A DNA stretch of 64,000 nucleotides from a virus: positions 48,658-112,657 of the IMG/VR virus record IMGVR_UViG_3300032245_000936. One strand, 5' to 3'. The notes under the pieces are model-generated. The model was not told the origin of the DNA and searched no databases. It saw only the letters and a program-made list of their open reading frames with translations. A program made the position numbers and the translations under genes. Shown here one piece after another: positions 1-22,300 of this stretch. The first letter of the stretch is position 1; each line of letters begins with the position of its first letter.

Positions 1-308
1 GTATCAAAACGAGGCAGTAAATCGCGATAGCGTTTGATAAACAATCCGTTGGTATTGATACTAGGGCGGCAACCTTTTGCCTCCAATGCGTCTAGTATGT
101 AAACAATGTCCTCACGTTTCATTGTACCAACTTCGCCACCGCTGAGTGTTACATTATAGCCAGGTATTATTTTATCTATTTTTTCTTTAACCTGATCCAT
201 GCCAAGTTTAGGACGATTGTGTGTGTCCACACAGCAATAGTTACAATGCCATTGGCATACCCATGTAACCACAAGTTCAATTTCTTTTTCTTTTGCTTGT
301 ATTGCCAT
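1..308 (-). CDS. Radical SAM protein (partial, runs off window); not in the ORF track
   Basis: Manual translation from ATG at 308: MAIQAKEKEIELVVTWVCQWHCNYCCVDTHN...TLSGGE...SINTNG. CxxxCxxC and GGE motifs; TGATG overlap with the upstream stop. Confidence 0.9.
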   Translation of the reverse strand, partial: MAIQAKEKEIELVVTWVCQWHCNYCCVDTHNRPKLGMDQVKEKIDKIIPGYNVTLSGGEVGTMKREDIVYILDALEAKGCRPSINTNGLFIKRYRDLLPRFD

Positions 309-889
309 CAGTGCCACCTTGCCACAACTGTAACAAACTCATCCAGGCTATATGGATGAACCTTGTGCCCGTGTTGGTTGAAGAAGTCCATCATTAGATT
401 CAAACTAATCTTGCGTTGACTACGTACATCAGGCAACAACAAGAACTTGATATGAGGATACTTCTCTATCATTTTATGTATGCTTCCATCCAGGAAGTTT
501 GTATTGGTTACTACCAATGCGTAGAACACATGATCTAATTCTAAATTAGGAAACTCTATGTCGTCGGGCAGATACTCCACGCAATGATAATGTATCTTTC
601 CAAACTCATGTACCAATGGCATGTGTTGCCTGAAGAACAACCCGTTTGTCAACAGGTCAATTATACAGTTCTTGTCCTTGAGCAGTTTTATTATCAACTC
701 CAACTGCTCACGTTTCAGTAACCCAGGCTCTCCTCCGCCAAACGTGACCTCTGTGTCGGGTTCAATGGCCTTTACCCTGCGTAGTACTTCTTCAAAAGGC
801 AGCTCTGGTTGGTTGTGTATATCTGCAACACAATAGTCACAGTGCCAGTTGCACTTGTTGGTTAAAGGCAATTCAATTTCTTTTTTCAT
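308..889 (-). CDS. Short radical SAM protein
   Basis: CNWHCDYC, GGGEP, LLTNG. Likely start MKKEIEL at 889 (ATGA overlap with the upstream stop) rather than 931. Confidence 0.88.
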   Translation of the reverse strand: MKKEIELPLTNKCNWHCDYCVADIHNQPELPFEEVLRRVKAIEPDTEVTFGGGEPGLLKREQLELIIKLLKDKNCIIDLLTNGLFFRQHMPLVHEFGKIHYHCVEYLPDDIEFPNLELDHVFYALVVTNTNFLDGSIHKMIEKYPHIKFLLLPDVRSQRKISLNLMMDFFNQHGHKVHPYSLDEFVTVVARWH

Positions 890-1560
890 CTCAATGCCTT
901 TAACTTGCGGATATTGTTTACTTCCCAGCAACTGGTAATCAAATGTAGATAGCTGTCAGGTGCAATACGATCTTTATACTGATTATATACTTTGAATCCA
1001 TTGGCTCTGCTCAATCCTTTGCCAATTACATTATCTGCTCCAAATACTAAAAATCTGATATCCGGATATTGATTGATATAAAAGTCCAAACGGTGCATGG
1101 TATCATCTGTGATTACCAATTGAAAATCAATTTTGGATATATCAACGTGCTCAGGAATCCAAATGTCATCATTGTCTAAATGTTCACTACAGTGATATAA
1201 AAAACTGTCTGGGATATGGCATAGATTTTTGTGTTTTTTAAAAAATGTTCCATTGGTGTTTACATTAACAAAGCATCCTTTATTCTTTAACTCTGTTAAC
1301 ACCCATTCCATAACAGCATGATCAATGAGCCCTGGCTCGCCACCAGTTAATGCAACATCACTGTTTCCTGGTATTGCTTCAACTTTTTGTTTTATGTCAT
1401 GATAGGTTACATCAGCTCTGTTGTGTGTGTCCTCAGAGCAGTAGTCGCAGAACCAATTACACTTATAGGTTAGGTACAAGGTATAACTGTTAGCTCCATC
1501 AAGTCCTCCTTGAAAGAATTCATAGTTGTCGTGCTTTACTCTTGGCAATTGATTGCTCAT
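886..1560 (-). CDS. Short radical SAM protein
   Basis: CNWFCDYC, LTGGEP, VNTNG; paralogous to its two downstream neighbours. Confidence 0.9.
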   Translation of the reverse strand: MSNQLPRVKHDNYEFFQGGLDGANSYTLYLTYKCNWFCDYCSEDTHNRADVTYHDIKQKVEAIPGNSDVALTGGEPGLIDHAVMEWVLTELKNKGCFVNVNTNGTFFKKHKNLCHIPDSFLYHCSEHLDNDDIWIPEHVDISKIDFQLVITDDTMHRLDFYINQYPDIRFLVFGADNVIGKGLSRANGFKVYNQYKDRIAPDSYLHLITSCWEVNNIRKLKALR

Positions 1561-2609
1561 TTGTAAAACCCTTTTCTATAAAAATTTACCTGTGTGATTT
1601 TTTCACCCGGAGCCGGAGTCAGTACCACATCTTTGATCTGTTTCTCAACACCATCACAGATGTAATAATGTTTACACTCTAAGCAGTCCTTGGTTTTATA
1701 GTATGTGCGGTTGCGTTTGAATGCGGCTGCATCATACATGGCCTTGAGTGGATCAGCGCGATATGTTTCAGGATCGATGTCACCATTGTATACCGCAATA
1801 TTCCAATCATATACATCATAGATATGTTGATAATAATTGCAAACGTATTGTTCATAGCCTGTCATGAAGCAATAAGGTGTGTACCTTACGTTGATTTTTT
1901 TAACTTGATCTTTTAACAAATCAATGGCCTGATGTACATAAGGTGTAACTTCAGCGTAGTTGATAGTGTCTTGTTTGCCAGCATCGTCCCAATAGTTGAG
2001 AGTGAGAAAGTTCACTTCAAAGGGTTGTAGTTCTTGCATCAGTGCCACAAACTTTGTGGGCAAGGATTTGTAGTTCCGGTGAGTCACTGTGCAATTAACA
2101 CGAACCAAAATGCCTAACTCATGTGCATTGTGTATGGCCTGGACAATATTTTCAAAGCCCTTGCGATGACCTACTAATATGTTGTGAGACTCTTTGTCAT
2201 AACCATGTACACTAAATAGGATTTCTTCTAGTCCGTGTTCTTTTGATTTTGCTAAGAATTCTTTATTGGCAAATTTGTACCCATTGCTCAGTGTACTGAT
2301 TTTCAATCCATGCCCGCGGCAGTAGTCTAGTATATCAAACCATTGCTTGTGAATACTGCTTTCTCCACCACTAAGGTCTACTTCTTTAATTCCACAAGCA
2401 ATCAAATAATCAATGCGTTCTTTTATTTTTTCAAACTCAGTTACTTCATCAAGCTGTGTTTTGTAATAGCAGAACTCACAACGATAGTTGCAATGTGTGC
2501 CAGTGTCTAGTTTGGCACGATTGCACATAGGCTCGTTACTATCAATCTGTAACTTATTGCTCAGCTCGTTGTATAGTCTCACGTTCAATCTCTTGGTATT
2601 GTTGGTCAA
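1557..2609 (-). CDS. Radical SAM protein with C-terminal CxxCx5C cluster
   Basis: CNYRCEFC, LSGGE, LSNG, FSVHG; C-terminal CLECKHYYICDG. Start (TTG) uncertain. Confidence 0.88.
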   Translation of the reverse strand: MTNNTKRLNVRLYNELSNKLQIDSNEPMCNRAKLDTGTHCNYRCEFCYYKTQLDEVTEFEKIKERIDYLIACGIKEVDLSGGESSIHKQWFDILDYCRGHGLKISTLSNGYKFANKEFLAKSKEHGLEEILFSVHGYDKESHNILVGHRKGFENIVQAIHNAHELGILVRVNCTVTHRNYKSLPTKFVALMQELQPFEVNFLTLNYWDDAGKQDTINYAEVTPYVHQAIDLLKDQVKKINVRYTPYCFMTGYEQYVCNYYQHIYDVYDWNIAVYNGDIDPETYRADPLKAMYDAAAFKRNRTYYKTKDCLECKHYYICDGVEKQIKDVVLTPAPGEKITQVNFYRKGFYK

Positions 2610-3399
2610 TTGGCTCTGGATCAGCCTGATATTTCTTTTTACTTGCCACCATCAATTTAAATGATGACACCGATTCTTTATAACAAGTCCTACTAAAACT
2701 ACTGCAATGATTTAAACATATACTTTGGCTATCAAAGAACTTGTATCTAATAGGGTGCTCTAATGCTTCCTTTAGTGACACTGTGTTTAGATTTGCAAAG
2801 GCCAACTTATCATTATAAGGAACATTGTCTTTTACGAACTTACAAAACATCACATCACCATTGGCCAATATCTTGGGCATACTGTGAAAATGGCATTTGA
2901 GTTTAGAGTTGAATTCTTCGTTTATTTTTGTGCCGGTGTAATTGAAAACATAGTTTCGATCGCGGCGCTCTAGGTTGTAACGTATACCGGCTGCATCAAG
3001 TTCATCAATTCGACGATGCACAATATCAAATAAATTTTTATCCATGCCGGTTAGCTCTTTGAACTTTTCTGGAGTGTCACCATAATAACTGATACAGAAT
3101 TTAATATTGGTCATACCAATTTTTTTCAGCTTCTCTACATTCACTGCGGTTACATTGGTAAACACAATGGTGTATTTCATATGCGTGTTTACAAAATCAA
3201 GCATTTCATAAATGTCAGGATGCAGGAATGGTTCGCCTTTTGCAGGAATCAAATCAACTTCTGTTATGCCCATTGCCTTTGCTTCTAAAATAATTCTTTT
3301 GAATAATTCTAGATCCATATACTGCGGCTCGGTGATATCTTTGGCTTTGCAAAAATAGCATTTGAAATTGCAATACTCAATGATTTCTACCACTATCAT
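2554..3399 (-). CDS. Radical SAM protein with twitch/SPASM-like C-terminus
   Basis: CNFKCYFC, KGEPFLHP, FTN; C-terminal C...ILANGDVMFC...ICLNHC. Confidence 0.88.
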   Translation of the reverse strand: MIVVEIIEYCNFKCYFCKAKDITEPQYMDLELFKRIILEAKAMGITEVDLIPAKGEPFLHPDIYEMLDFVNTHMKYTIVFTNVTAVNVEKLKKIGMTNIKFCISYYGDTPEKFKELTGMDKNLFDIVHRRIDELDAAGIRYNLERRDRNYVFNYTGTKINEEFNSKLKCHFHSMPKILANGDVMFCKFVKDNVPYNDKLAFANLNTVSLKEALEHPIRYKFFDSQSICLNHCSSFSRTCYKESVSSFKLMVASKKKYQADPEPIDQQYQEIERETIQRAEQ

Positions 3400-4289
3400 A
3401 TTATGCCTTTAAGGATGTCCACTATCTCATCATTGGGCTTTAGATGGATGCTGTCAAACTTATAGTCAATATCCCAGCGTCTCCAATACAGTCCTAGATC
3501 TTCTGCCCAGTAATCTATATCATGATAAATTACCTCTTTGCTGTAGTATTTACATTCGGCTATGAAACGAGGCGAACAATCCCACTTTCTTTCAACTGGA
3601 GTGTACACATACGTGGTAAACTGTTCAAACAGATTGTCTACTGGTGGAAGTATAAACGTAATTCCAGTCACTGGAGTTGGTTGATTTTCTGCATTGGTAA
3701 TTGCAACAATAGGTTTATTGTATCTTGCAAAGTCTGCCCAATCTTTTATATTGCGGCAGTTTTTGGTGGCATACAGCAATATTTGATTTTTGCTTTCGCC
3801 AATGGTTTTTAGTCGACTAAAGAGTATTTTCTTTTTATAGTTGATTCCGTTGGTTTTGACAGGATCATACACACGGTCGTCTTGTAAGATGTAGACGTTG
3901 TGTTTATCATTGTCTTTGATCTCTTTGTTTCCGCAAGCAAAGAAGATGATGTTGTCAAATAACAGCGTGTACTCTTGTGCATTTACAATACCTCCGTCTG
4001 TAAATAAAATATTACGGCCACGTAACAAACTAGGGCGATTGCCGAACACAGTATGTGCGCGAATATCGGCAATTTCATGATCTGTAAAATCATACTTGTT
4101 TCTAATACTTCTCTCAACGGTTTGCCAATCAATATCTTCTCCTAAAAAAATTCCCACTTTAAAATGATCTTTGAGTACGTGATAGTAGTCAAATACTTCA
4201 AAGGTATGTCCACACACGCCGTGATTGTTGTTGCTCCAGGTATAGCTGAGCCAGAGATCGTACGAAGGATCTAATTGTATTATTTTCAT
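3396..4289 (-). CDS. Hypothetical protein, possible GT-B fold glycosyltransferase
   Basis: C-terminal DCSPRFIAECKYYSKEVIY resembles the GT-B nucleotide-sugar-binding helix motif; similar to the neighbour at 4286-5074. Confidence 0.5.
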   Translation of the reverse strand: MKIIQLDPSYDLWLSYTWSNNNHGVCGHTFEVFDYYHVLKDHFKVGIFLGEDIDWQTVERSIRNKYDFTDHEIADIRAHTVFGNRPSLLRGRNILFTDGGIVNAQEYTLLFDNIIFFACGNKEIKDNDKHNVYILQDDRVYDPVKTNGINYKKKILFSRLKTIGESKNQILLYATKNCRNIKDWADFARYNKPIVAITNAENQPTPVTGITFILPPVDNLFEQFTTYVYTPVERKWDCSPRFIAECKYYSKEVIYHDIDYWAEDLGLYWRRWDIDYKFDSIHLKPNDEIVDILKGII

Positions 4290-5074
4290 CTGAGCATTGC
4301 CTTTACCATTACATCATCTTGTGTCAGTGTGTAATTAGTCAGTCCGTTTTGTTTGATATCATTGTAGCGTAGCATGATTGAATCTACACCTGTATAGACT
4401 TCTTCTACTGTGACTTGTTTATTGTAATAAAATCCCTCAGGGATGATTCGATTGTTGCTGTCTCGTACCACATGTATATAATGCACTGCATCAATCAATT
4501 CAAACAAGTTGCCTACTCCAGTGTGTTGCTTCTTTAGTATAATTGGTCGATTGAACTGTTTCTTTAATCGTTCATATTCAAATCGAATAAACTGTGGGTC
4601 CAGACAACTCACAAACACGCCAGGTGCTGAAGTTGTTAGCTGTGGGAATATTTCAAAGTTTAATTTTAGATAGCAGAACACATCGTAGTATTGAAAATCA
4701 TAGCTTCCGTAGTAGGTTACAGATCTTTGATTGCGGTAGCGGAACCATTCGTGTTCTTCGTTGCTAAAACAATGTACTTCGTTGGTGAAAAACTCTCGGC
4801 ATTGACGAAATGTATCAACATCCAGTACCAGAGTTCTGTCTAGATCAAGTTGATAGAGTTCGGTGAGTTTGATTGGAACAATGCCGTCTGTGAAAATTTG
4901 ATATTTTTGAGAAAGTATGTTTGCGACGAGGCGAAGATCGCCTTCTGTTATGCCTATAACATAAAATTGAACATCAGTATATTTTTGTAAAAACTTAAAA
5001 TATTCAAAGCAGTAAAACAGAGTTCCGTTGATCTTGTTATGTGGTTTGTGTTTGTACACCACTCCAAGTTTCAT
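4286..5074 (-). CDS. Hypothetical protein, possible GT-B fold glycosyltransferase
   Basis: INGTLFYCFEYF N-terminus and DSNNRIIPEGFYYNKQVTVE C-terminus parallel the neighbour (VCGHTFEVFDYY; SPRFIAECKYYSKEVIY). Confidence 0.5.
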   Translation of the reverse strand: MKLGVVYKHKPHNKINGTLFYCFEYFKFLQKYTDVQFYVIGITEGDLRLVANILSQKYQIFTDGIVPIKLTELYQLDLDRTLVLDVDTFRQCREFFTNEVHCFSNEEHEWFRYRNQRSVTYYGSYDFQYYDVFCYLKLNFEIFPQLTTSAPGVFVSCLDPQFIRFEYERLKKQFNRPIILKKQHTGVGNLFELIDAVHYIHVVRDSNNRIIPEGFYYNKQVTVEEVYTGVDSIMLRYNDIKQNGLTNYTLTQDDVMVKAMLR

Positions 5075-5075
5075 A

Positions 5076-5690
5076 TTAAAATCTTGCGTAGAAGTCTTCT
5101 AAAAAGTTTTGTTCTATTGTTTTAACTTCTTCTTGTGTGTTAGACAATTTAATTGCAGTGCGGAATGCACTGAACTTTCTTTCTAGCTGTGCCACAGATT
5201 CAATTTCATCTTTGTAGTTTAGATAATCTTCTAACTTGGTAATCAGTTTCTCGTCGCCGGTTTCAAGTATTTCCAAATACTTTTCTTCACGGTTGTCATT
5301 GGTGATGAAATATCCAGCATTGGCTAGATCGTTGTTGAGCATGATAAATCCATACATGGTCAGCCCAGCAATCTTGGAAAGCTCTGGTGTAATCAACATG
5401 CGAATTTTTATCATGGCTGCATTTCTTGCTTCCTGGAGAGGGTCTGTTTCCATAAGGTCAATGACCTCAAACTCCCCGGGCAATACTTCCGTGGTTCTGA
5501 GAGTTTTACTGATATGAATAGTTTTGTTTTCAACCACTGCTTTTTTCATCATCTCAGCACTCATGTAACTGAGTTTGAGATATTTTTCTTGGTGGTCCGC
5601 CGGGGCATCTAATGTGTTGTTGACCACATTAGTTACCCGGTAGTAAGTGCCGCAGTCAATGACGTGGGCCAGATCGTAAAGCATTGTCAT
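5076..5690 (-). CDS. Hypothetical protein, possibly a fibre-assembly chaperone-like helical protein
   Basis: ORF directly downstream of the S74-containing gene. GAGGA RBS before ATG at 5690 (track start 5714 is TTG). Helical C-terminus. Function inferred from position only. Confidence 0.55.
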   Translation of the reverse strand: MTMLYDLAHVIDCGTYYRVTNVVNNTLDAPADHQEKYLKLSYMSAEMMKKAVVENKTIHISKTLRTTEVLPGEFEVIDLMETDPLQEARNAAMIKIRMLITPELSKIAGLTMYGFIMLNNDLANAGYFITNDNREEKYLEILETGDEKLITKLEDYLNYKDEIESVAQLERKFSAFRTAIKLSNTQEEVKTIEQNFLEDFYARF

Positions 5691-5716
5691 AATTGATTCC
5701 TCATTGTATACCAAAT

Positions 5717-6385
5717 TCAGATTGGTAAGAGTTTATAGTTCACCATGTAAAATCCGCGAGCATCCTTCTTTAATGCTTGTTCATGTTTGGTTCCAACTAG
5801 TTCTTGAGCAATAACGCCAACATACTCTGTGGCTTTGTCCCAGATATATGTCCAAGAATAGATATTCAGACCATTGCGTGTTTCAATGAACTTGATGTTT
5901 TCTTTGAGACGTTGATCACTGTAGTTACAACCGCAGTCGTTGTGACAACTACAAACGTTGTTACAGGAGCAGTCTGAATTACAAATACAATCTTGGCGAA
6001 TTACATCGTAACGTGCTTTGAGCTCCGTCCAATGAGTAATCTGTACCTTTGTGCCTGCGGCCAGCGAAGCCGGAACTGTGGTCAGATATGCTACCATAGT
6101 ACGAAGATTGTTGTATTGTCCTGACGTGGCTGTGGTTGCGCCCGGTGAAAATGCAGTTCCCTCATACAATGTGTATGGGCCGTAATCGCCATGAGAATCA
6201 TAACGAGCAATCTCGTCACGAATACTGCTACGTAATAAATTTATATCTGCGGCTGTTACCTTACCACCTTGAGCCCATTCATTACTCATGGTAATGGCTC
6301 TGTTAGTAGAGCAGCCAGGACGGTGATTTGAACAGGATGATGTGCCTGTTCCGTGGTCAGTGCAGTGTGAACCAGAGCATGCCAT
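5717..6385 (-). CDS. Cys-rich protein with C-terminal Peptidase S74 intramolecular chaperone domain
   Basis: N-terminal MACSGSHC...SC...GC; (CxCxxx)4 block CICNSDCSCNNVCSCHNDCGCNY followed directly by SDQRLKENI...GVIAQEL...VNY, the S74 autocleavage signature. Confidence 0.85.
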   Translation of the reverse strand: MACSGSHCTDHGTGTSSCSNHRPGCSTNRAITMSNEWAQGGKVTAADINLLRSSIRDEIARYDSHGDYGPYTLYEGTAFSPGATTATSGQYNNLRTMVAYLTTVPASLAAGTKVQITHWTELKARYDVIRQDCICNSDCSCNNVCSCHNDCGCNYSDQRLKENIKFIETRNGLNIYSWTYIWDKATEYVGVIAQELVGTKHEQALKKDARGFYMVNYKLLPI

Positions 6386-6389
6386 TTGG

Positions 6390-7565
6390 TTAAGTTCCTT
6401 CCATTTCTAATTGTTTTGCTTTTTCAGTAACAACTTGTAATTCGTTGTCAAGGTAGGATTGAACGGTTCTATCAATTTCACCAAATGCCTTAAAAAAGCC
6501 ACACATGTTGTTTACCCAACGATCAGTCCAACGATCGAAGTAATCTTCTTTTTTGCTATTGTCTAAACTGGACACTGGGCAAATCATACAAGTCGTAGCA
6601 ACACAGCCTTTGCAAATATCTGAAACTGTACGAATTGGAATGCTGTATGTTTCACTCATCTTGGCTACGTCGTCAACAAAACTGTCTTGGTCAATACTAC
6701 TGCCTCTCATGAGTTCTTTGTTTGGACTGTACAAAGATCCATGGCAAGCATAGCTTTGTCCATCAACGTCAATGGCGTGCATGTTGGCACCAGACGCACA
6801 GTGTACTTTTGTGTCGCCGCCGTCAAACCATGACATCAAATGATGATTGTGCTCACGATAGAATTTGATTTCTTCTCGCGCAACCATTAACATTTCTTTT
6901 CTAAAATCTTCAATCATCTTAGGCAAGTCGCCAGATGGAATCTCATTCACATAATCAATTGTAGGAGCATAGGTCACTGTGATATTTCTACCAATGCTGT
7001 TTAGACGTTGGTGTAAATCACGGAAGTCTAACCAAGTCTTGTAAAGACCAGTCATGCTCTTGAGAGGAATGGTGCTTTTCAATGAGATGTTAATACCTTT
7101 ACGTGCAAAGTATTCAATGTTCTCTACCACTGTGGAGCTGGTTGGTTTACCAGTGTGAGTTAAACGGAATTTGTCATTGATGTCTTTTCCGTCGTAACTG
7201 ATTTGAATCTGTAGTTTGCTAGTATCTACTGCATCAAAAATATCTTCTAGGCGCTTGCGGTTATAACCATTGGTGTAGATATGAAATTCAATCTCAGGAT
7301 ACTCATTGAATTCATTCATTACATCAATAATCATTTTACCATTTAGTGTTGGCTCACCACCCCAGAAGCTGATGTTCAAGCTGTCATATTTGTTGCGGAA
7401 CCAAGGTGACTTTCTTAGTTCGTGAATACGCTGTTTAACTAGATCTAGTTTGTCGTCTAGACGTTGTTTGTTGGTCTTCACACCCTCAAAGCAATAGGTG
7501 CAACCCAAGTTGCACAAAGCAGTGGTGGTGATTTCGATAGTAAATTGTCCTAAACGTTCATTCAT
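6390..7565 (-). CDS. Radical SAM/SPASM-domain protein (anSME/peptide-maturase-like)
   Basis: CNLGCTYC, FWGGEP, YTNG, ISYDG; SPASM-like HCASG...DVDGQSYACH...CKGC...CMIC...C. Confidence 0.9.
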   Translation of the reverse strand: MNERLGQFTIEITTTALCNLGCTYCFEGVKTNKQRLDDKLDLVKQRIHELRKSPWFRNKYDSLNISFWGGEPTLNGKMIIDVMNEFNEYPEIEFHIYTNGYNRKRLEDIFDAVDTSKLQIQISYDGKDINDKFRLTHTGKPTSSTVVENIEYFARKGINISLKSTIPLKSMTGLYKTWLDFRDLHQRLNSIGRNITVTYAPTIDYVNEIPSGDLPKMIEDFRKEMLMVAREEIKFYREHNHHLMSWFDGGDTKVHCASGANMHAIDVDGQSYACHGSLYSPNKELMRGSSIDQDSFVDDVAKMSETYSIPIRTVSDICKGCVATTCMICPVSSLDNSKKEDYFDRWTDRWVNNMCGFFKAFGEIDRTVQSYLDNELQVVTEKAKQLEMEGT

Positions 7566-7795
7566 TGTGTGTCTTTCCCCATGGTCATAATTTCATCTAA
7601 AATGCTCATCATACGATCATCTGAAACTTTTTCTTCTTCAGGTTGAATAATCAACGCCATTTCAGCTGCCATGTGTAAAAGTTTATCGGATTCGTCCTGA
7701 AATTCTTGCACATTTGACAAGTGTTTGGATGCTTCCAGTAGATGATTGCTGGCATAAAACAGCGCCTTGTTCATCTTTTTAATGCTAGTTGACAT
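7562..7795 (-). CDS. Small helical hypothetical protein between two SPASM enzymes
   Basis: ORF overlaps both neighbours (translational coupling); ATG at 7795. Confidence 0.65.
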   Translation of the reverse strand: MSTSIKKMNKALFYASNHLLEASKHLSNVQEFQDESDKLLHMAAEMALIIQPEEEKVSDDRMMSILDEIMTMGKDTQ

Positions 7796-8792
7796 TCTCA
7801 ATTTCCTCTTTAAGTTGTTGTATAAAGTACGGATTGCTACCTAGCTCTTGTGACATCCTACTTACTTGCCTGTAAGTGTATTTATATATGCTACAGAGCT
7901 CCACGATAGGACCTTTGTTTTTGATTTGCTCAAATAAACAGCCTTTTTCGCAGTAGTTTTTTACTTCGCAGGATTGACACTCGGGCATTTGTGCATATTT
8001 GGGTATTTCTGCAATCAGCTCGGGTGCTTTGGTAAAACGTGTGCAGGGCACAATCTTGTTGTCGCTGAACATGAATATGTCTGTTCCTGCGCCGCAGTTG
8101 TGTTTTTCTAATCCTTTAACTTTGTAATTTAAAAAATGGCGAAGATAAAATGTGATGAAAAACGGCATCTGCTCATGCGGATTTGCGATGTACCAATCAA
8201 ACAGTTCTTCGATACCTGCTTTGAGTTTTTCCACACTAGCAGAATCCCATACATCAACGTCACGTACCAGCGTAAGCTCTGGATTCACTCCAAAGTGCTT
8301 TTTTATAAACAAATGATTTTCCAATAGGTTATAGCAACCCTTGTAAATCATTGTGTGCATACGTAGGTTGGGTATCTGTTTGAATAGATCTGCTTTTTCT
8401 AAAAATCTATGTGAGGTTTTGCGACCGTTTAACTGTAGCCTATATTTGTCTTGCCACAGTCCGTCAAAACTCACAGATGTTTCAATTTGTTCTTTAACTA
8501 GGTACTCCAGTATTTCATCTGTTAACAACAACCCATTCGTGGGCATGAATAATTTTACATTGCCATCTTCACGTACACCATCTACTATACGCTGAATCAA
8601 ATCAAATTGCAACAGGGGCTCACCCCCAAAAAAATCAATCTTGATACGTTCAGTCGGGTGTTGTTCCCGCATCTTTCGAAACTCATCAAGATACATGTCT
8701 ACATCAATGGCTTTTTTGCTCCATTTATCCACGTCACAGTAGGTGCAATTTAGATTGCACTTTTCTGAAAGGACCACAAGCAAGGTTTTCAT
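7785..8792 (-). CDS. Radical SAM/SPASM-domain protein
   Basis: CNLNCTYC, FFGGEPLL, PTNG, VSFDG; SPASM CGAG...VPC...CQSCEVKNYCEKGC...C. Confidence 0.92.
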   Translation of the reverse strand: MKTLLVVLSEKCNLNCTYCDVDKWSKKAIDVDMYLDEFRKMREQHPTERIKIDFFGGEPLLQFDLIQRIVDGVREDGNVKLFMPTNGLLLTDEILEYLVKEQIETSVSFDGLWQDKYRLQLNGRKTSHRFLEKADLFKQIPNLRMHTMIYKGCYNLLENHLFIKKHFGVNPELTLVRDVDVWDSASVEKLKAGIEELFDWYIANPHEQMPFFITFYLRHFLNYKVKGLEKHNCGAGTDIFMFSDNKIVPCTRFTKAPELIAEIPKYAQMPECQSCEVKNYCEKGCLFEQIKNKGPIVELCSIYKYTYRQVSRMSQELGSNPYFIQQLKEEIENVN

Positions 8793-9526
8793 TTTCTATA
8801 GATCTCGTTTAATTTTAATACAGTATTTAAGAGCTCTATGTCAAACATATCTGCTAGTGCTTTTGTATCTTTAGGCAAGCACGGGCCACCAAAGCCTCGC
8901 TGGCCATCTGGGCCCGGAACTTGAAAATGATGTGTGCCCATCCATGGCTGCATTTTTAACACATCAACGATACTGTTGTAGTCAGCGCCCAGCTCATTGG
9001 CAACATCATATATGGCATTCATGTATGTTACTTTGAGTGCATAAAAACTGTTCATTGTGTATTTGGCCAATGCCGCAGTTTTTATGTCTGTGAATTTTAC
9101 TGTGCTCATGTTCACATCAGAGTATTTGCGATACAGATCTGCCACACGCTGAGTTTTGTCTGTGTCACCACCTAGTAGTACAAAAGGCGGGTTAATAAAA
9201 TCATCTGCGGCTGTTGCACGGCTTAAAAACTCGGGGTTGTAAACAATGTCGTATTGTTCTAGCACATGTGGAAGTGCTGTGCTTTTTACAACAACAATTC
9301 CTTGGTAATTGGTACTTTTAATACGTTCCAATGTTTCACGTAGTATTTGATAGTTGCTATGATCAGTAGGAGTAGGCACACATACAAAAACAGCGTCAGG
9401 ATTTTCCCCACACATATATTCTATGCTGAGATCGTTGTATGCAGGGTCAGAGAGCATCACTGCGGTTTTACTAAACCCAGTTGCCACCGCCTTGCCAACC
9501 ATTCCGTAACCAATTATTCCGATCAT
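8789..9526 (-). CDS. ugd: UDP-glucose/GDP-mannose dehydrogenase family protein (short form)
   Basis: GIIGYGMVG Rossmann motif, VCVPTP, KST, YNPEFL, AKY..N, catalytic GFGGPCLPKD; lacks the usual C-terminal domain. Confidence 0.88.
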   Translation of the reverse strand: MIGIIGYGMVGKAVATGFSKTAVMLSDPAYNDLSIEYMCGENPDAVFVCVPTPTDHSNYQILRETLERIKSTNYQGIVVVKSTALPHVLEQYDIVYNPEFLSRATAADDFINPPFVLLGGDTDKTQRVADLYRKYSDVNMSTVKFTDIKTAALAKYTMNSFYALKVTYMNAIYDVANELGADYNSIVDVLKMQPWMGTHHFQVPGPDGQRGFGGPCLPKDTKALADMFDIELLNTVLKLNEIYRK

Positions 9527-9551: not shown

Positions 9552-9581
9552 ATTGTAGCAAAACAACAACACCTGTGTCAA
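9552..9581 (-). promoter_or_regulatory. sigma70-type promoter for the ugd/radical-SAM operon, overlapped by an inverted repeat
   Basis: Minus strand TTGACA-18 bp-TACAAT with extended -10 TG; inverted repeat ACAGGTGTT (9543-9551)/AACACCTGT (9568-9576). Confidence 0.65.
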
Positions 9582-9594
9582 GTACTATTTTAGA

Positions 9595-11658
9595 TTATCG
9601 AATTGTAACAGCGGCTTCAACTAGTTCTTCGCCTGATGTTACTTTTTCTTGCAGAGTACGTCCAATTACATTAAATGCTGTGGCTTCACCGGGTTTGGCA
9701 GCACGGGCCACTCCATTTCCTGCACTTACCAAACGGCCATTGCGTTCTACTGGGCCAACCACACGCACAGGAACTCGTCCTGCTAGTGCAACTGGAAGAC
9801 CATCTGAACCTGCATTCAGCACATGTCCTGGATTGGTAGAAATTACGCCAAACACATTTTCACTTGCATCGTCGTTCTCTTGAGTAATTTCAGCTGAGCC
9901 GCCAATTCTTACTAGTGTACCTGGTGCGTAGTCTATGTCACTTGCATAACGTTCTGCCAAGTCAGCGTATCTTGCTTGAATTGACACACCGTAGATGTTG
10001 TTCCACCATGCGCCTGAGCTACCTAGGTTAACTGCGGCATTACCAGCTGGCAATGGAGCAGAAACAAATGTTGCTGTACCGCCAACTGTCAATGTGGTTA
10101 ACTGTGCTCCACTGGCATAAATTACACCAAAACGACTTGTGGATTGACCAATGTCGCCTGACAGGTTAGCACCAAAGTGTGGAAGGCTAGTAACAGTCAC
10201 CGCACCAGAGTAGATGTTGGCAAAAGTACGCAATGGAGTTCCAAGTTCGTACTGGTTATCTGTAGATGGCTTGAGCGTACCTGTTAGGTCCAATGAGCCA
10301 TCTCTGTTTAACTTGTTTGCAGTATGGTTACTGACTTCACCTTGTAGAGCATATACGTTAGAGAACATACTGCCAGCTGGACCTGGTACTGCACCAGCAC
10401 CTGGTTGTCCAAGGTTACTTAGTACGTTGGCATGAATTGCAGAAACGTTTGCCCATAAAGTCAAAAGGTTTCCTGCAAATGTATCGTTGGTTGTGAAACG
10501 TGCGTATGCGTTTGCGGTATATCCGCCTTGAGCAATCGCTAACAACGTTGGGTTATTAAAGCCCAACTGTGATTGTAACAAACGAACGTTACCATACATG
10601 GCTGTGTATGAACCAGTTGTGGTCAATACGTTAGCAACAATAGTACCAATACTGGTATTCAATGTGTTAACGTTTGATGCCAAGTAGGTTTGTAATGTGC
10701 TTGCTAGGTTGTCAACATAGTTCTTGGTTGCAACACCTAGACCAGTTTGTGGGTCGGCCAACACTGTGATCAAACCAGATGATTTGTCAACTGTTAATAC
10801 GTTAACTGTGGCACCAGCCGCGTTGTCAGGTTTGGATTGAATTACTAAACCGTTACCACGTACACGACTGAATAGGTTAACGTTTTGACCAGCGACTGTG
10901 ATTGTGAAGTCTGTCACTGTACCGCCAAGTTCTTGAATGGCCAAACCGTCTGGTGTTTGAATAACCAATTGGTTATTCAAAACTGCATTGGTCTTGGTTA
11001 AGAACTGGTTAGCTGGGACTCCGCCTAGATAAGCAGAGTTGTTGGCATTTTCATAATACAACAACGATGGAACGTTGTCAGAATTTAGGTTAAAGCCCGG
11101 CTTAACAGTTGCAAAGCCTGGCAATGTTGTTTGTGGTGTAAATGCAGAGTCTTTTGACAAGATAGCAACCAAACGGTTCTGCACATAGAACTTGACAACC
11201 ACGTGCGGAAATAGTGTGGTATCAATGATTGTGTCAGCAACCGCACCAGATGTACCAGTGGTTGTGGTAAAGCTAGGGCCAATAATAACCCAGGCTGCAC
11301 CAGAGTATACTTTTAACTGCTGATTAACTGAGTCAAACCACAAGTCACCAGCAACTGCATTGGTTGGTTGATCTGCTAGACTCTGGGCACCAGAAATTGA
11401 CTTCCACGTACCATATGTGTCGTAGACTTGTAACACTCGTGTGTCTGATTTCCACCATAATTGTCCTACTAGCGGATATAATGGTGCGCTTCTGTTAGAG
11501 AAGTTTTCTAGCAGTTTTACAAAATTCTCGTTCAGGAACGTGCCATAACCAGCATAGTTCTTTCCGATCAGTGTTAGACTGGTAGTGATGTTATTGGTCT
11601 GACCGTCTGCGACCACTGTCAACGGCGTTCCGTCTGATTTTACTATGTTATAGCTCAT
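9595..11658 (-). CDS. Tail fibre/baseplate-attached protein with C-terminal autoproteolytic chaperone-like domain
   Basis: N-terminal LIGKNYAGYG..LNENFVKLLENF and GQLWW/GDLWFD modules; C-terminal YADLAERY...GVIST.P...VALAGRVPV (Peptidase G2/IMC-like). Confidence 0.75.
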   Translation of the reverse strand: MSYNIVKSDGTPLTVVADGQTNNITTSLTLIGKNYAGYGTFLNENFVKLLENFSNRSAPLYPLVGQLWWKSDTRVLQVYDTYGTWKSISGAQSLADQPTNAVAGDLWFDSVNQQLKVYSGAAWVIIGPSFTTTTGTSGAVADTIIDTTLFPHVVVKFYVQNRLVAILSKDSAFTPQTTLPGFATVKPGFNLNSDNVPSLLYYENANNSAYLGGVPANQFLTKTNAVLNNQLVIQTPDGLAIQELGGTVTDFTITVAGQNVNLFSRVRGNGLVIQSKPDNAAGATVNVLTVDKSSGLITVLADPQTGLGVATKNYVDNLASTLQTYLASNVNTLNTSIGTIVANVLTTTGSYTAMYGNVRLLQSQLGFNNPTLLAIAQGGYTANAYARFTTNDTFAGNLLTLWANVSAIHANVLSNLGQPGAGAVPGPAGSMFSNVYALQGEVSNHTANKLNRDGSLDLTGTLKPSTDNQYELGTPLRTFANIYSGAVTVTSLPHFGANLSGDIGQSTSRFGVIYASGAQLTTLTVGGTATFVSAPLPAGNAAVNLGSSGAWWNNIYGVSIQARYADLAERYASDIDYAPGTLVRIGGSAEITQENDDASENVFGVISTNPGHVLNAGSDGLPVALAGRVPVRVVGPVERNGRLVSAGNGVARAAKPGEATAFNVIGRTLQEKVTSGEELVEAAVTIR

Positions 11659-16320: not shown

Positions 16321-19300
16321 TTATTGTCCTAAGTCCAGCCATATACTACCCTGTGGTACATGTGTGGTTGTTGCTACTCGATACACAGCAGTATTTTGGA
16401 TGCTTGCATTACCAATATTGTTGTACACAGAGTAATCATTTGAGATTGTGAGTACTGTATCAGTTTCAAACTGTTGTACTGGGCTTGCATCAGTAATTAT
16501 GCTTCCGGCCACATGCACCAAAGGAATACTTGTTCGTTGTGCTCCACGACGTATGTCTGTTAGCACCCCACGGTTAAGGTCAATTCCAAAATAGTTAATC
16601 TTTTCGCCATTGACCCAAATACTGCCTGGCTGATTGATAGCTGCCGCTGGTGCTGGCAATCTAGCAATGTCAGCTACTGAAATCTCAGTGTCTTCATAGG
16701 ATAGGTTGGCAGTCAACACTGTGGTATTTGCATCTGGCAATCTGTAATAGACCGTTGACAGTTTATAATCAGTGAAGATCTTGAAGGCTGTTACATTACC
16801 ATAGTCAATGTTGCCATTGGTTACATTTGCAGTAAACACATTCATTTGTAAACTGTCAATCACCTGACCAGGTACCAGCTCTTCAGGAGCATGACTACTA
16901 TACTTGTCAATAAATTTACCGCCGTCAACAATGATATCTTCAGGACGAATACCTAATAGGTTATCAGTGTATTCACTGCTGATAATAGTATCTAAACTCA
17001 ATGGATCAGTATTGGTTTGTAAAAACTCCTGCCCTTTTACCAAGCCGCCTGGATAACTTGCACCCGGAATCTTATCAGGAATATCTCTATACAAATGATC
17101 TAGTACGCCAGCAATGTTGTATTGGGCAGTACTCACAATTTTTGTTCCAGACTGTATACCAAACACAGTGTCAGGGGACAACACATAATCAATTTTTAGA
17201 CCGTCTGTGGTCTCAAATATCAATGTGGTTGTGTTATTACGCACATCCTGTGTTGTTGTTTTTTGTATTTTTGTACCTGTTGCATCAAAGAATGTCAATG
17301 ATGTTCCGGCCGGAATAGCAACACTGGTGTCAGTTGACGGTTTATTTGGCAGAGACAACGGCTTGTTCAACTGCAATGTTGTTTTGTTTACAACAATTGA
17401 TTCGTAGTTGATGTTGTTGTCGCGTCCAGATCCACGTGCAAACTTCCAGGTGAACTTGGCAAAACGTCCAATTCCGTTAACCGTTGCAGCAAGAGGAATA
17501 CCAGTTCCGCTGATAGACCAGTTAGCAGTTACCTTTTCGTATCCATTTACATATACCACTGAGTCGCCTTTAGCGGCTGTGCGACTCACTGTTAGAGTTT
17601 TGGTTGTTGCTGTGTCAATGTCTGTAAATGTCAATACTGTGCCTACTGGAATTTCTGCAGTAAACAAATACTCTGCAATAAAAGATCCTAGCACTGTGGT
17701 TGTAATATTTGCAGAAGCAAAACTAATTGTGATGTTCCAACTGCCAGCAATTAACTCAACGTTTGTAATAATGGAATCAGTTGGTAACCCAGCACCGTTG
17801 AGAGTCATACCTCTAATAGGTGCGCCAATTACATCAGTTACTGGTATAGAAATTATCAGCGAAGTTAATCCAGTACCACCGGTCCAGTGTGCAGATGAAT
17901 TTCTAGTGTACGCATACCTATTAGGATTTATATTGCCTAGCTCAATGTATACTTCGTCATTGTATCCTGGGTAGCCCCAGATCACAGTAGATTTATTACC
18001 TACTACAATAAACTTTTCGCCGTCCCAGCTAATGTCAGTGAAATCGTACTTGCGTACATTTTCTGCGCTCAGCGGAAGAACAAAGTTATCAGAATCAAAT
18101 TCACGGAAGTTTTTAAACACATTGATACCGTAGTTCATCACAACCTTACCAATGGTATCTGCACCTGTGTCTGCATTGCCTAGTTGAACCTGTAGCGGAC
18201 TATCTAGTTTGTTCCAGATCAAAGTGCCACCGGATCCAATTGCAATAATCCACTGTCCTACATCATCACTGATCGCAATGGCATTGATTTGCTCTCCACT
18301 ATAACCATCGCTGTCGCCAGCAACAGACTTAGGCACATTCATTGGAATCCATGGGTAGTTAAAATCAGTGCCTTTGCCGCTATCATAGTTATAGCTTAGT
18401 TTGTATCCTTGTTGTAGATCATCAAGTCTGTTATAACTGGTGATGTACATGTTTCCATTTATGCCGCCAATTACCACAAAACCAACTTGCATTGGTTTCC
18501 CAAACCCATTTAGTGTAAAACTACCAGAACCTTCAAGATTTGCGTTATAGTATGCAAAATGTACCATTTGTGCCGGACGTGTTGTACCCACTGTGCCAGC
18601 TGCCGCAATCGCAGTATTTTCCGTAAAGCCCAACTGTATCACAGTGGTGCCTGGTGTTGTTGAACTATCAACGTTGATCACGCCGTGATTTGTTGGCACG
18701 TACGGACTGATCATTGTCATACCAAATTCAATAGTACCAGAAATATCCGCAGTTGGAATTCTTACAATCAACGTGCTACCAGTCACTGCTGCCCAGGTTG
18801 CTGATGCGCGAAGTGTTTTAGCGCGAATAAACAAAGACAAATCGCCAAAACTTCTAGAGTCCACTGCTAAGAAATTAGCCGGAGTATTGTATACCTTAGG
18901 CTGTGCTTTGGCTGCGTACCAAGTGTTTTCAAACGGCGCACTGGCATTAGTATCTGTTGGGTTCAACAGAATAGTATCACTGTTACCCACAGTTAAAATA
19001 TAACTGCCTTGTGTGCTAGTAAATGCTGTGACGCCAGTTAAGTCAACTGCTTGTGCGGCTTCGTTCAGTACCAAACCATTCACAGCATCTAGCGAAGGAC
19101 TGTATCTAAATGTTATAATTTGATCAATGTTCCAATTAACAGCATCCAAGCTGGTTAGAACATATCCACGGTTACCAATAGCCACCCATGTTGTGCCGTT
19201 ATAATACACCACGTCTCGCAAGTTCACTGCTTGATCATTCAATGGCACGTTGGTCCAGTTAACACCGTCTTGACTGTAGCTTAATAGTCCTCGCTGACCA

Positions 19301-22300
19301 ACTGATATGTATTGGTATTCGTTTGCGGCAGGAATGACTCCAGAGAATGCTGTTCTTGCCCACTGGTTACCTGTAGAACTTGCATCGTTGTTATTTGATG
19401 CAGGTGTTAGACGCACAGTATCAGGTGAGTTAAACAGTACCGCAACATCGGGTGTTCCTGGTTTATGGAACGCGGCCAGTCTGTCTACTGCGTTGTCAAC
19501 ATCCGAGCCTGACAGTTTTTGCACAACTGCATCATTTTGGAAAATGTTCAAATCCAAAGTAACAGTGCCAAGAATTGTCTTTAACACTCTATAAGGTGTA
19601 CTAAAGGACGGAACTGCCTGGTCAGGCAAATTGTAAAATACCGATGTCTTAACGTCTGGAACCACAACAATGTCGCCCACGTGATAGGTTGTGTAGGGCT
19701 TCCATGTGCGAACACTGGACGAGTATGTTATTCTATCAAAATTCAATATTGTGGTAATTGTACGCACAGTTTTGCTAGAATTATCAACGGTAGTGTTACC
19801 AGTCAATGACACCAACTCTGCATAGGCTTTAGCACCAGACCCACCGCCGCCAACAAATGTAATTGTTGGAGCACTGGTAAAATACTGACCTGGCGAAGTA
19901 ATTGTTACAGAAACAACTTTTCCATCAGTATCTAGTACCGCTCGTGCGCTGGCACTAACACCACCGCCACCAGATATTCTAACCAATGGGCGTTGCTTGT
20001 AGCCTGATCCTGAATCAGTTACTACGATGCGCTGAATTGAATAACGGTAGTTCTGGTACCAGTTCTTCCACACACCGGCATTGACAATCGCTAAATCTGT
20101 GGCTTTTGTTGGGTTCAATGATCTTGTTGTTCCTCGTACAGGATCGTAGTAAGCAGGAAAATCAAAGTCAGCAATAGCGTTATAACTTTCATCAAGCCCT
20201 TCGTAGTCAAGTAGATAGTCTCTGAGTTGAGTTCTATATGGTTTGACTTCGTTGATATAGCTTTGATAGTAGTCTTGTTGATCCTTGATATAACTAGCAA
20301 ATTGTTCGAGTTTACGAATCTTTTGTACCACAGTAATAAAGCTGGTCTTGAACAACCAATCGGCATTTTGTTGCTCACTGAGAATATAGTTTACTAGTGC
20401 AAAGAATACTTTGTTTAATTGCACACGGTTGTCACCAATGAAGATGTAATTAAAAATACCATTGATAATATTTCTAGCTTCAATGGCCAAGCTCTTGGAG
20501 AATCCGGTAGTATCAAAACCTGGATTGTCAAAGCCCACTAAGCTCTTGGTGTTGTCATACAAGCTGGAATTCAGTTGTATAGTTCCGTTTTCTGCGCCAA
20601 CCAATGTTGGAGTGATTATTCCGGCTGAGTCTACTGCCAACTGATATAATTCAAAATTACCACCAAAGTTTGTTACTTTTAGGATATCGCCATCGACAAC
20701 TTTTTCTTTTAGTGTTTCTATATCGTTGTAACTATTGATAATATGATTAACTTGAATATTATCATTAAATGTGTCATTGATATACCAGTTTGCATAATTC
20801 CAATAGCGTGTGCTATCGTAGGACTGAATACGTTCTAGTGTAAATGTTTTGTCTTTTGCTGTGTAAAAATAGATGGTCCAGAAACCACTATAGTCTGCGT
20901 CGGTTTCCACTAGCACACGGAATCCATCAAACAGGTCAGCTGGAGTAAAGTATGCCAACGCATCTTTAGTAGTTACTCTACTATCGTAGAATCCTAGGTT
21001 TTCCTGAGGAATTGCCTCAGCTAATTTTAGCTGTGTTAGATCGTACTCTTTGGCTATTAGATACTGCTTGAAGAATTTGTTTACAAACTGTACCAACACG
21101 CGAGTGCCAGCGGCCTGATCTTTAAGCATACTCTGACGAGGACGAAGAGAAATACCCAGTCTGTCAACTTCTCGAAGTTTTAGATCGGGTACCACGTCAC
21201 CAGTTAGGTTCTCACCTGCTAGGCTATCAATCAACTTGTTGATTAGTTTTGTTGGAATAGCACTTAAAGGATTTCCTTGCTGTACCAGTTCATACTCACT
21301 GTGTGCAATGTTGTTATTCAACACCTGAGCATACTCAATACGTAGTATCGAGTCTTTGCCCGAGATAAACGGCTTGCTGTTGTATACCGCAAAAGTATTG
21401 GTACTCAATGCCGCAATATATGGCAATTCTTGTTTGATTGGATTCTGAATAATATCCGAAATAGCAGAAATGCTATTGATACGTTTTGTCTTGGCGGTGT
21501 CTACAGATACTTTATCCGTTACCCAGTAATAGTATTTGGTCTTGACCAATCCAGACTGAGTGTCAATGTAGGCTACTTCAACATAGGCAGAGTCGTTAGG
21601 ATACTTAGGAACTCCGTCGCCGCCATTGGCCACATAATCGCTTGGTAGGTATTGACTTTCGACCCACTCTAGGATTTCAATGGTACTACCTGGGAACAAT
21701 CCGCCCCATTGGCTAATACGATAGGTAAGCTCACCCTGTTCGTAAGTTATGTAGCGGCAAGCGTCTAGGTTCCACCAAACTCTTCCAATCTGTACATCAT
21801 TCCAATAACTAGTAGCATCAATGTTTACTGTGGTATCTGTGCCTTTGTTATAAAATGCTGGGTCATAGCTGGTCTTGTAATCAATGTCTTGATCTGCAAT
21901 ACCCAATATTTTTCCCTTGGCTGGATCATAATAGTCAAACGTACTCAGTGCTACTTGTGTCTTTTTATTGTATGCTGATACTTTGTTGATATAATCAATA
22001 TCAACCAGTTCAGATCGTGAACGCAACTTGCTCCAGCCTTTCTTGGAAGTTGGGTTGATAAACAAGTGCATCAAACCTGCTTGAGTGCTGTAGTAACTGC
22101 TATTAAAAGCACCAACCATAATTCTACCATTGTTGATGTCAACGGAGCTACCAAAATTATCGTTGAATTTAATTTTACTATTCTGTAGCACTTGGTTAAA
22201 CAAGAACTTACCTGGATTTTGTAAAGTCTCTCCGGGCACAGGTAGGTAATCGTAAACATACACCGCGCCAGAATTCTTTAGGGAATCAATAAAACGTGTG

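Follow-up and report, generated by a model that had tools for sequence, protein, structure and literature searches.

A Cys-ladder protein encoded beside two SPASM radical SAM enzymes, with an optional S74 domain, in phage and predatory-bacterium loci

A stretch of 64,000 nucleotides (nt) of viral DNA, positions 48,658 to 112,657 of IMG/VR record IMGVR_UViG_3300032245_000936 and hereafter the window, encodes on its minus strand a protein of 222 amino acids (aa) in which a periodic ladder of Cys residues runs directly into a Peptidase_S74 domain, also called the ICA domain (for intramolecular chaperone auto-processing). The window is part of a 112.6-kb viral contig (42.7% G+C) with portal, major head, baseplate-wedge, and tail-fibre genes, and a protein of its head-gene region is ~42% identical to a protein of PA5oct-type jumbo phages (scaffolding protein in one record). 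The ladder gene belongs to a co-directional block right after the tail-fibre genes. The block runs from a Ugd-like gene through a gene for a SPASM-type radical S-adenosylmethionine (SAM) enzyme (A), a 79-aa protein, a second SPASM enzyme (B), the ladder protein, a 212-aa protein, and paralogues of 262 and 297 aa to eight radical SAM genes, past which lie DegT-, epimerase-, PIG-L-, and deacetylase-type genes and an IscA-like gene. The central features, in window coordinates, are:

5717..6385, minus strand: gene for the Cys-ladder protein, 222 aa, from the list of open reading frames (ORFs), with an ATG start, a stop codon at 5717-5719, and 147 full-length homologue clusters (alignment A1)
6302..6385, minus strand: N-terminal Cys/His cluster, aa 1-28 (C3, H7, C8, H11, C18, H21, R22, C25, N28)
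5990..6301, minus strand: central helical core, ~aa 29-132, with helices 45-64, 88-99, and 116-131 in the AlphaFold2 (AF2) monomer (pLDDT, the predicted local distance difference test, ~75-91)
5921..5989, minus strand: Cys ladder CICNSDCSCNNVCSCHNDCGCNY, aa 133-155, four CxCNxx-type units with Tyr155 last, delimited by conservation
5720..5920, minus strand: short-form Peptidase_S74/ICA domain, aa 156-222 (PF13884, invariant motif, AF2, and BFVD)
6390..7565, minus strand: SPASM radical SAM enzyme B, 391 aa, PF04055, immediately upstream of the ladder gene
7785..8792, minus strand: SPASM radical SAM enzyme A, 335 aa, PF04055

The ladder gene starts 4 nt past the stop of the preceding gene, behind a Shine-Dalgarno-like stretch (GGAAGGAA). 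A 190-aa copy of the same product in the protein collection (P0001) begins at Met33, but homologues conserve the N-terminal 32 residues and the true start is therefore 6385. The protein has 12 Cys residues in total, lacks a signal peptide, and is made in the reducing cytoplasm. A sequence-only reading of this DNA had described a Cys/His cluster at the N-terminus and a Cys repeat directly before SDQRLKENI. Both are present: the N-terminus (MACSGSHCTDHGTGTSSCSNHRPGCSTNR) holds C3, C8, C18, and C25 plus three His residues, residues 133-155 map exactly to 5921-5989, and S156-D-Q-R-L-K161 follows immediately after Tyr155. Within the ladder, N136xxC139 and N142xxC145 form NxxC motifs.

Judged by its conservation, the ladder pattern is a real signal and not a product of chance. 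All eight ladder Cys residues are invariant in the 34 homologues of alignment A1 (42-68% identity), as are N136, D138, N142, Y155, S156, D157, R159, L160, and K161. In a set of 107 homologues that share this spacing, each of the eight ladder Cys residues, N136, D138, and N142 are kept in 107/107 and N154 in 106/107, and S156, D157, R159, L160, and K161 are again invariant. C18, R22, C25, and N28 of the N-terminal cluster are invariant in A1; in distant relatives this region carries a variable CX3-4C repeat or has shrunk to CxxH, and its Cys count ranges from 1 to 8. The residue after each CxC interchanges between Asn, His, and Tyr among relatives. No 18-nt tandem repeat is present in the ladder coding sequence, which argues that selection at the protein level keeps the periodicity and rules out a recent DNA repeat expansion as its origin.

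A word-based search gave 147 clusters of full-length homologues of 220-260 aa, all metagenomic, and the number of 50%-identity clusters from an exhaustive profile search was 229. When the region was compared with cultured phages by megablast, no match was returned, and tblastn of the ladder protein returned only S74-domain matches in unrelated phages, with no ladder homologue in cultured phages. Longer fused forms were absent from the word-based search, but the exhaustive search did recover proteins of 460-833 aa (P0220, P0238, P0215, P0225, P0247, P0259, and others) that terminate in a helix plus Cys ladder (...CGCNY) and share the N-terminus MS..TLLFEEI.K....NKDT. These long proteins match no Pfam or PHROG family, occur in no IMG/VR locus, and are unnamed in their source records.

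The two SPASM genes just upstream are the strongest evidence on the nature of the ladder. Linkage was followed in nine IMG/VR loci with a full-length homologue, the divergent locus L014, and ~30 metagenome loci with flanking DNA. In all loci examined, a gene for a 391-type SPASM enzyme directly precedes the ladder gene, usually overlapping it or abutting stop to start; across them a 335-type enzyme lies upstream and a homologue of the 212-aa protein downstream. The linkage persists to ~30% identity and after rearrangement of the cassette (L087, L088, L094, and L097), and ladder-less S74 proteins recovered in the same locus scan have no such enzyme cluster.

Both enzymes carry the CX3CX2C motif and seven SPASM Cys residues (C12/16/19 with C233, 250, 272, 275, 281, 285, and 300 in enzyme A; C18/22/25 with C256, 274, 318, 321, 326, 329, and 355 in enzyme B), and this set is kept in all homologues (26/26 for A, 32/32 for B). 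The best NCBIfam match of enzyme A is PapB (101 bits against a cut-off of 340), with HxsB and QhpD next; that of enzyme B is also PapB (89 bits against 340). Matches of the pair further include CcpM, SCIFF, the CXXX-repeat family, and TIGR04463/CrpC, all of them, like the preceding ones, far below cut-off. On these scores the pair are not members of the PapB family (NF047865), best match notwithstanding. The nearest solved chain is CteB (5WGG, E 4e-13) for enzyme A, and ChlB and anSME for enzyme B. Campylobacter phages of the CP220 type encode a SPASM protein 27-29% identical to enzyme B over ~93% of its length (27% in CP220 itself: L062, NC_027997.1, 164742-165911), and its gene adjoins the tail lysin gene. 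We rejected CP220 as a carrier of the same system: the one small flanking ORF that was translated, of 117 aa and just upstream, lacks a Cys-rich sequence, and the search of cultured phages gave no ladder homologue.

The cassette is not confined to viral contigs. It is chromosomal in two Halobacteriovorax genomes and occurs also in a metagenome-assembled genome of the Bdellovibrionales. In Halobacteriovorax sp. CON-3 it occupies NZ_JBEBNA010000001.1, ~1,699,500-1,739,561 (L099/L101). To one side of the Halobacteriovorax cassette stand aroC, an aroB-aroA fusion, and a gene for outer-membrane efflux, to the other LysR, flavodoxin-like, and CAAX-protease genes, and no phage hallmark genes were seen around it. 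The ladder protein there has 183 aa, lacks S74, and ends in ...CGCHY. A nearby gene (L101 13987-15567, minus strand) encodes a 526-aa protein that joins a prepilin-type N-methylation motif to an S74 domain, and it adjoins a gene for a full-length 398-aa Ugd with all three domains. No homology was detectable between this pilin-like S74 protein and the 687-aa tail fibre encoded upstream of the phage block. In Bdellovibrio, phage-like trimeric fibres serve in prey recognition (PMC10769870). The cassette is thus associated with fibre genes in phage and predator alike. Its place, which is after the tail-fibre genes in the phage and in Halobacteriovorax beside the gene for the pilin-like S74 fibre, points to a role at the surface or in association with virion fibres.

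The S74 domain is well supported. PF13884 matches aa 156-196 (E 6.5e-7; 30 bits against a gathering cut-off of 22), and the Ser-Lys dyad of the S-D-x-R-x-K motif is intact (S156, K161). PHROG alignments of the C-terminus, made through this domain, lead to virion, ejection, and tail-fibre families, and BFVD fold matches are ICA-domain proteins that cover the S74 part of the model only. The domain is of a short form, with 67 aa from Ser156 to ...YKLLPI. DSSP assignment of its AF2 model gives only short strands and one 4-residue helix, without the C-terminal trimeric coiled coil; a long form with a coiled coil is found in some distant relatives (P0200, P0211, P0221, and L090). In MyRF the C-terminal coiled coil drives trimerisation (PMC8326128). 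S74/ICA domains cut N-terminal to the conserved Ser, as in T5 pb1 at Thr1263-Ser1264 (PMC4690869) and in MyRF at P586-S587 (PMC8326128), and by this analogy the scissile bond here is predicted to be Tyr155/Ser156.

Natural C-termini of relatives agree with that position. The ladder proteins of L091, L092, L095, L096, L097, and Halobacteriovorax terminate exactly at ...CGC(N/H)Y, those of L088, L094, and P0117 terminate one residue past the ladder Tyr, and those of L071, L079, L089, P0114/5/9, and P0120 retain only a stub of 12-16 aa with SDxRLK. Cleavage before Ser156 would give ...CGCNY155, the natural end of S74-less relatives, and this supports processing to a product of ~155 aa. The product of that size ending in the Cys repeat, as the sequence-only reading proposed, would also fit the published cleavage position and the intact dyad. 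Three IMG/VR loci (L010, L011, and L015) encode a different S74 protein in ORFs of 627 aa, with an irregular Cys-rich stretch (CLTNGYCGVDDCYLEGPFACLGSGKFGCYCQYG) right before SDERVK. These ORFs have no radical SAM gene nearby, so Cys-rich segments at S74 sites are not always enzyme-linked.

Structure prediction separates the Cys segments from the rest of the protein. The AF2 monomer (pLDDT 74) has a confident three-helix core (aa 30-132) and a confident beta-rich S74 domain, and both Cys segments (aa 1-26 and 135-156) fall below pLDDT 50. A homotrimer prediction (three copies, alignment A1) scored 0.00 and was counted neither for nor against any reading. Foldseek of the model against the PDB found nothing at E <= 0.001. 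A profile search of PDB sequences gave only chance-level matches, such as phospholipase C at E 0.03, with no solved homologue spanning the ladder, and neither the PDB nor BFVD offered a convincing structural relative of the helical core.

We favour, with a probability of roughly one half, the reading that the ladder protein is modified in the manner of a peptide synthesized on ribosomes and modified post-translationally (RiPP), its C-terminal ladder being cross-linked by the SPASM enzymes, probably through thioethers to the invariant Asn and Asp residues. This reading is preferred because of the strict linkage to a SPASM pair of a Cys-targeting clade that lacks a RiPP recognition element (RRE), the periodic Cys core at the C-terminus, and the existence of precedents. 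The presence of the same block in two Halobacteriovorax chromosomes and a Bdellovibrionales genome counts in its favour, as does the position of the ladder, which lies at or within 3 residues of the C-terminus in 50 of 146 representatives and also closes the proteins of 460-833 aa. The C-terminus is the usual place of a RiPP core, and here a periodic Cys-rich core at the C-terminus is encoded adjacent to SPASM enzymes, as in RiPP-like systems. The best family matches of the pair are Cys-targeting thioether maturases, and the two Cys segments are the parts of the protein that AF2 models with low confidence while the remainder is confident. Precedents are QhpD/QhpC, the Cys-Asp thioethers of PapB (PMC9413430), thioethers to Asn in the NxxC motif by NxxcB (PMC9389541), and the cross-linking of the Cys-repeat protein CrpA by the SPASM enzyme CrpC (PMC13692751). 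The suggestion that Asn and Asp are typical thioether acceptors is borne out to the extent that both are documented for radical SAM enzymes (PMC9413430, PMC9389541).

We infer a course of events that runs from enzyme action on the ladder protein and the type of cross-link to oligomeric state, cleavage, and destination of the product. The precursor would consist of a helical body of ~130 aa and an extreme C-terminal CxC(N/H)xx ladder that ends in Tyr. Two adjacent 7-Cys SPASM enzymes would modify the Cys-rich segment or segments in the cytoplasm, and the likeliest reaction would be formation of intramolecular thioethers of the ranthionine/sactionine type from ladder Cys residues to, for example, Asn136, Asp138, and Asn142. 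The outcome would be a stapled knot that is proof against reduction. The S74 domain, fused behind the ladder in this phage lineage, would fold, probably as a trimer, and cut itself off at Tyr155/Ser156, so that the cleaved product would share the ...CGCNY C-terminus that S74-less relatives get by translation.

Several points weigh against enzymatic cross-linking. All family scores of the pair lie far below the curated cut-offs (89-101 bits against 340 for PapB) and point to no particular reaction type. The radical SAM motif begins at residue 12-18, so neither enzyme has an RRE, and no PqqD-like or other family match was found for the 79-aa and 212-aa partners in Pfam, PHROG, or NCBIfam; a recognition partner of a novel kind may serve instead. 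Genes for sugar modification and a further eight radical SAM genes share the cassette, and the SPASM pair could have another substrate, such as the 79-aa protein. A division of labour with one SPASM enzyme per Cys-rich end was rejected, as both enzymes persist when the N-terminal cluster consists of one Cys. The S74 domain is short and lacks the trimerising coiled coil, and the stub variants hold SDxRLK without the remaining domain. CxC spacing is classic for metal-thiolate clusters, and the swap of Asn, His, and Tyr after CxC is no less compatible with a metal ligand or a turn residue than with an acceptor of thioethers.

The last two points lead to the alternative that survives best, which we nonetheless consider rather unlikely. 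In it the ladder stays unmodified and forms a tight beta-solenoid or triple beta-helix, its inward-facing CxC pairs bind metal much as HxH pairs bind iron in phage fibre and spike tips, form a metallothionein-like thiolate cluster, or become disulfides after release, and the radical SAM enzymes act elsewhere, for example on the 79-aa protein or nucleotide sugars. In S74 proteins the part directly upstream of the cleavage site is normally a trimeric beta-structure that the domain folds (PMC4690869, PMC8326128), and Cys residues at i and i+2, a 6-residue period, and an Asn after each pair resemble ladders of ligands or turn residues. The interchange of Asn, His, and Tyr and the shrinkage of the N-terminal motif to CxxH in distant members fit such a role as well. 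The DegT-, epimerase-, deacetylase-, PIG-L-, and Ugd-type genes offer possible targets for many radical SAM enzymes, an IscA-like gene lies nearby on the contig, and low AF2 confidence is expected too if the segment needs metal or a trimer to fold. However, an unmodified ladder leaves the constant linkage to the SPASM pair over large evolutionary distances unexplained, and the protein has no signal peptide and is synthesized under the reducing conditions of the cytoplasm. Pfam and NCBIfam return neither a metallothionein nor another metal-binding family for it at E <= 0.01, and the existence of S74-less relatives shows that a trimer-folding chaperone is unnecessary for the ladder. Cross-linking and bracing by metal or disulfides are not mutually exclusive.

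The S74 domain is optional in the ladder family and has been lost repeatedly, at least 4 times and by parsimony 13, and this bears on the proposal of the sequence-only reading that it acts as a built-in follower peptide. If S74 were an obligatory follower and protease, needed for recognition by the enzymes and for freeing the modified core from a trimeric fibre, its intact Ser-Lys dyad right behind the ladder would be explained, as would its presence in 114 of 136 sampled members of the closer clade. But in the tree of these 136 sequences, built from the N-terminal part only, 11 have a stub and 11 have none, which makes 22 closer relatives without a complete domain, and the state of S74 changes at least 13 times by parsimony, with at least four changes forced by well-supported branches. 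In the wider family, 146 representatives from the exhaustive search were classed: in 50 at most 3 residues follow the ladder, 43 have a tail of 4-20 aa, and 31 have a tail long enough for S74, and about two thirds lack a complete domain. Relatives without a complete S74 retain the ladder and, wherever flanks are known, the same enzyme neighbours; the SPASM enzymes therefore cannot depend on S74, and the domain is not a recognition element that they require. We regard the obligatory follower as improbable, and the original proposal does not hold in that form. A carrier, scaffold, or electron donor of iron-sulphur (Fe-S) clusters for the ten radical SAM enzymes of the cassette is very improbable, because although the protein has 12 Cys residues and is co-transcribed with many Fe-S enzymes in a phage with an IscA-like protein, known motifs of ferredoxins or scaffolds do not resemble CxC spacing with invariant Asn/Asp, no Fe-S family matches in Pfam or NCBIfam, the same ladder terminates proteins of 460-833 aa, and a self-cleaving fibre-type S74 makes little sense on an electron carrier.

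The remaining features of the block in the window are:

5076..5714, minus strand: conserved protein of 212 aa, encoded directly downstream; where downstream DNA is available, bacterial loci included, nearly every ladder gene is followed by a homologue
7562..7801, minus strand: helical acidic protein of 79 aa between the SPASM genes, in most loci including Halobacteriovorax (alignment A4)
3396..5074, minus strand: two paralogues of no assigned family, 262 and 297 aa, with conserved synteny
3..3399, minus strand: five further radical SAM genes (281, 350, 224, 207, and 207 aa), from CxxxCxxC motifs, the gene map, and PHROG/NCBIfam
8789..9526, minus strand: truncated nucleotide-sugar dehydrogenase-like gene, 245 aa, first in the block and conserved in that place (TIGR03026, E 5e-37, below cut-off)
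9552..9581, minus strand: promoter-like site, TTGACA-18-TACAAT with TG, in the space that follows the tail-fibre gene, from a consensus scan only, which is not evidence of function

The 79-aa protein has no family match in Pfam, PHROG, or NCBIfam. The AF2 model of the 212-aa partner (pLDDT 84) combines a small beta domain with long helices and finds generic helical matches only (VIA-align Z <= 9.4); a Pfam scan of 16 members gave nothing consistent, and its one lead, from the Atlas, is DUF4376 at 0.87. In L008 one unrelated ORF separates the ladder gene from the 212-aa homologue. For the 297-aa paralogue the only lead, also from the Atlas, is to glycosyltransferase clusters at 0.90. The last 207-aa radical SAM gene runs off the window, and three more such genes outside it (G000:C1 45624-48354) bring the number in one co-directional block to ten. 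Three minimal paralogues of ~205 aa and three of ~300 aa are among them, and the number and set of radical SAM genes differ among related loci (5-10). The dehydrogenase-like gene encodes 245 aa in all phage loci and covers profile positions 75-294 of 413.

Outside the window, the cassette's far end holds a 108-aa ORF (G000:C1 35793-36119, minus strand) whose N-terminus looks, by inspection of the sequence, like that of A-type Fe-S carriers (IscA/ErpA). Close by are LmbE/PIG-L-, epimerase-, deacetylase-, and P-loop kinase-like genes. Upstream of the block, the 687-aa tail-fibre-like protein (9595-11658, minus strand) has a weak, sub-threshold match to Peptidase_G2 at aa 554-618, which is another auto-cleaving intramolecular chaperone domain, and only the C-terminal ~130 aa of this fibre are conserved among fibre genes of related loci. 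A single ORF of 6226 aa (16321-35001, minus strand) between the baseplate-wedge gene (35050-38559) and the tail-fibre genes presumably encodes a giant fibre or structural protein.

Known systems share parts of this arrangement. In QhpD, a SPASM enzyme forms Cys-to-Asp/Glu thioethers in QhpC, the gamma subunit of quinohaemoprotein amine dehydrogenase (TIGR03906). QhpD thus cross-links a real protein subunit and ranks second to third among the family matches, but the phage locus has no QhpC-like sequence, dehydrogenase genes, or subtilisin-type leader protease, and the processing proposed here is autoproteolytic. A close likeness is to CrpA/CrpC of Methanococcus voltae, in which a TIGR04463 SPASM enzyme installs ranthionine cross-links on a Cys-repeat protein (PMC13692751). 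CrpA, like the ladder protein, is a whole protein that is structured in its N-terminal part and carries at the C-terminus a periodic Cys repeat of low AlphaFold confidence, and its gene lies beside that of a SPASM enzyme with three clusters. The two repeats have unlike units (17 aa with CxxQ/D in CrpA, 6 aa as CxCNxx in the ladder), CrpC has an RRE whereas the phage enzymes do not, and the TIGR04463 score here is 50 bits against a cut-off of 525. Unlike CrpA/CrpC, the ladder system has two SPASM enzymes, a viral or predatory-bacterium setting, and the S74 fusion. PapB/PapA (freyrasin) and NxxcB/NxxcA share with the ladder system Cys residues near Asp or Asn acceptors, including NxxC (PMC9413430, PMC9389541), and PapB is the best NCBIfam match; in contrast to them, the ladder system has sub-equivalog scores, no leader/RRE logic, a substrate of 155-222 aa, and Cys pairs at i and i+2.

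On the side of fibre proteins, the ladder protein shares the S74/ICA domain with endosialidase K1F, T5 pb1, the phi29/GA-1 appendage, and MyRF: its Pfam match is above threshold, the SDxRxK dyad is present, and the domain forms the C-terminal end of a phage protein whose gene comes after tail-fibre genes. The domain studied here differs in that it has 67 residues and no coiled coil and is dispensable in its family, and upstream of it stands a Cys ladder on a small helical protein rather than the long beta-helical fibre of classic systems. HxH iron-binding repeats occur in the tips of trimeric phage fibres and spikes, such as the T4 gp37 tip and the P2 gpV apex. These tips (see also bioRxiv 10.1101/2023.02.25.529910) likewise stack ligand-type i, i+2 pairs periodically at the distal end of an adsorption-type protein, but in the ladder, for which a trimer or bound metal is hypothetical, Cys replaces His and dedicated radical SAM enzymes are linked. 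With metallothioneins the ladder has CxC spacing alone in common and no family match (Pfam, NCBIfam, E <= 0.01). SPASM-modified Cys-repeat proteins and S74 auto-processing are thus already known, and in full-text literature searches no account of a system like this one in phages or Bdellovibrionota came up.

The family is broad, with 229 clusters at 50% identity and ~40 loci with conserved synteny. Cross-linking by the SPASM enzymes, if true, would mean that phages and predatory bacteria apply the natural-product chemistry of RiPPs to their own proteins. Thioether staples would provide disulfide-like bracing, independent of oxidation, for a protein that is made in the reducing cytoplasm and would work outside the cell. 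A viral and predatory-bacterium branch would join the very short list of RiPP-like modified proteins (QhpC, CrpA, and MCR), defined by a compact, strictly conserved target motif of 21-24 residues and two small RRE-less SPASM enzymes, and the self-cleaving S74 domain would have a new use. More tentatively, and at clearly less than even odds, giant phages and Bdellovibrionota may share a radical SAM pathway that is dedicated to stapling the C-terminal Cys ladder of surface or virion proteins, a RiPP-type change to a structural protein in contact with host or prey, with the phage S74 domain as a disposable cap whose removal exposes the ...CGCNY tip. With such a pathway, enzymatic cross-linking of this kind would be new to virus particles, and an autoproteolytic follower new to RiPP-like precursors.

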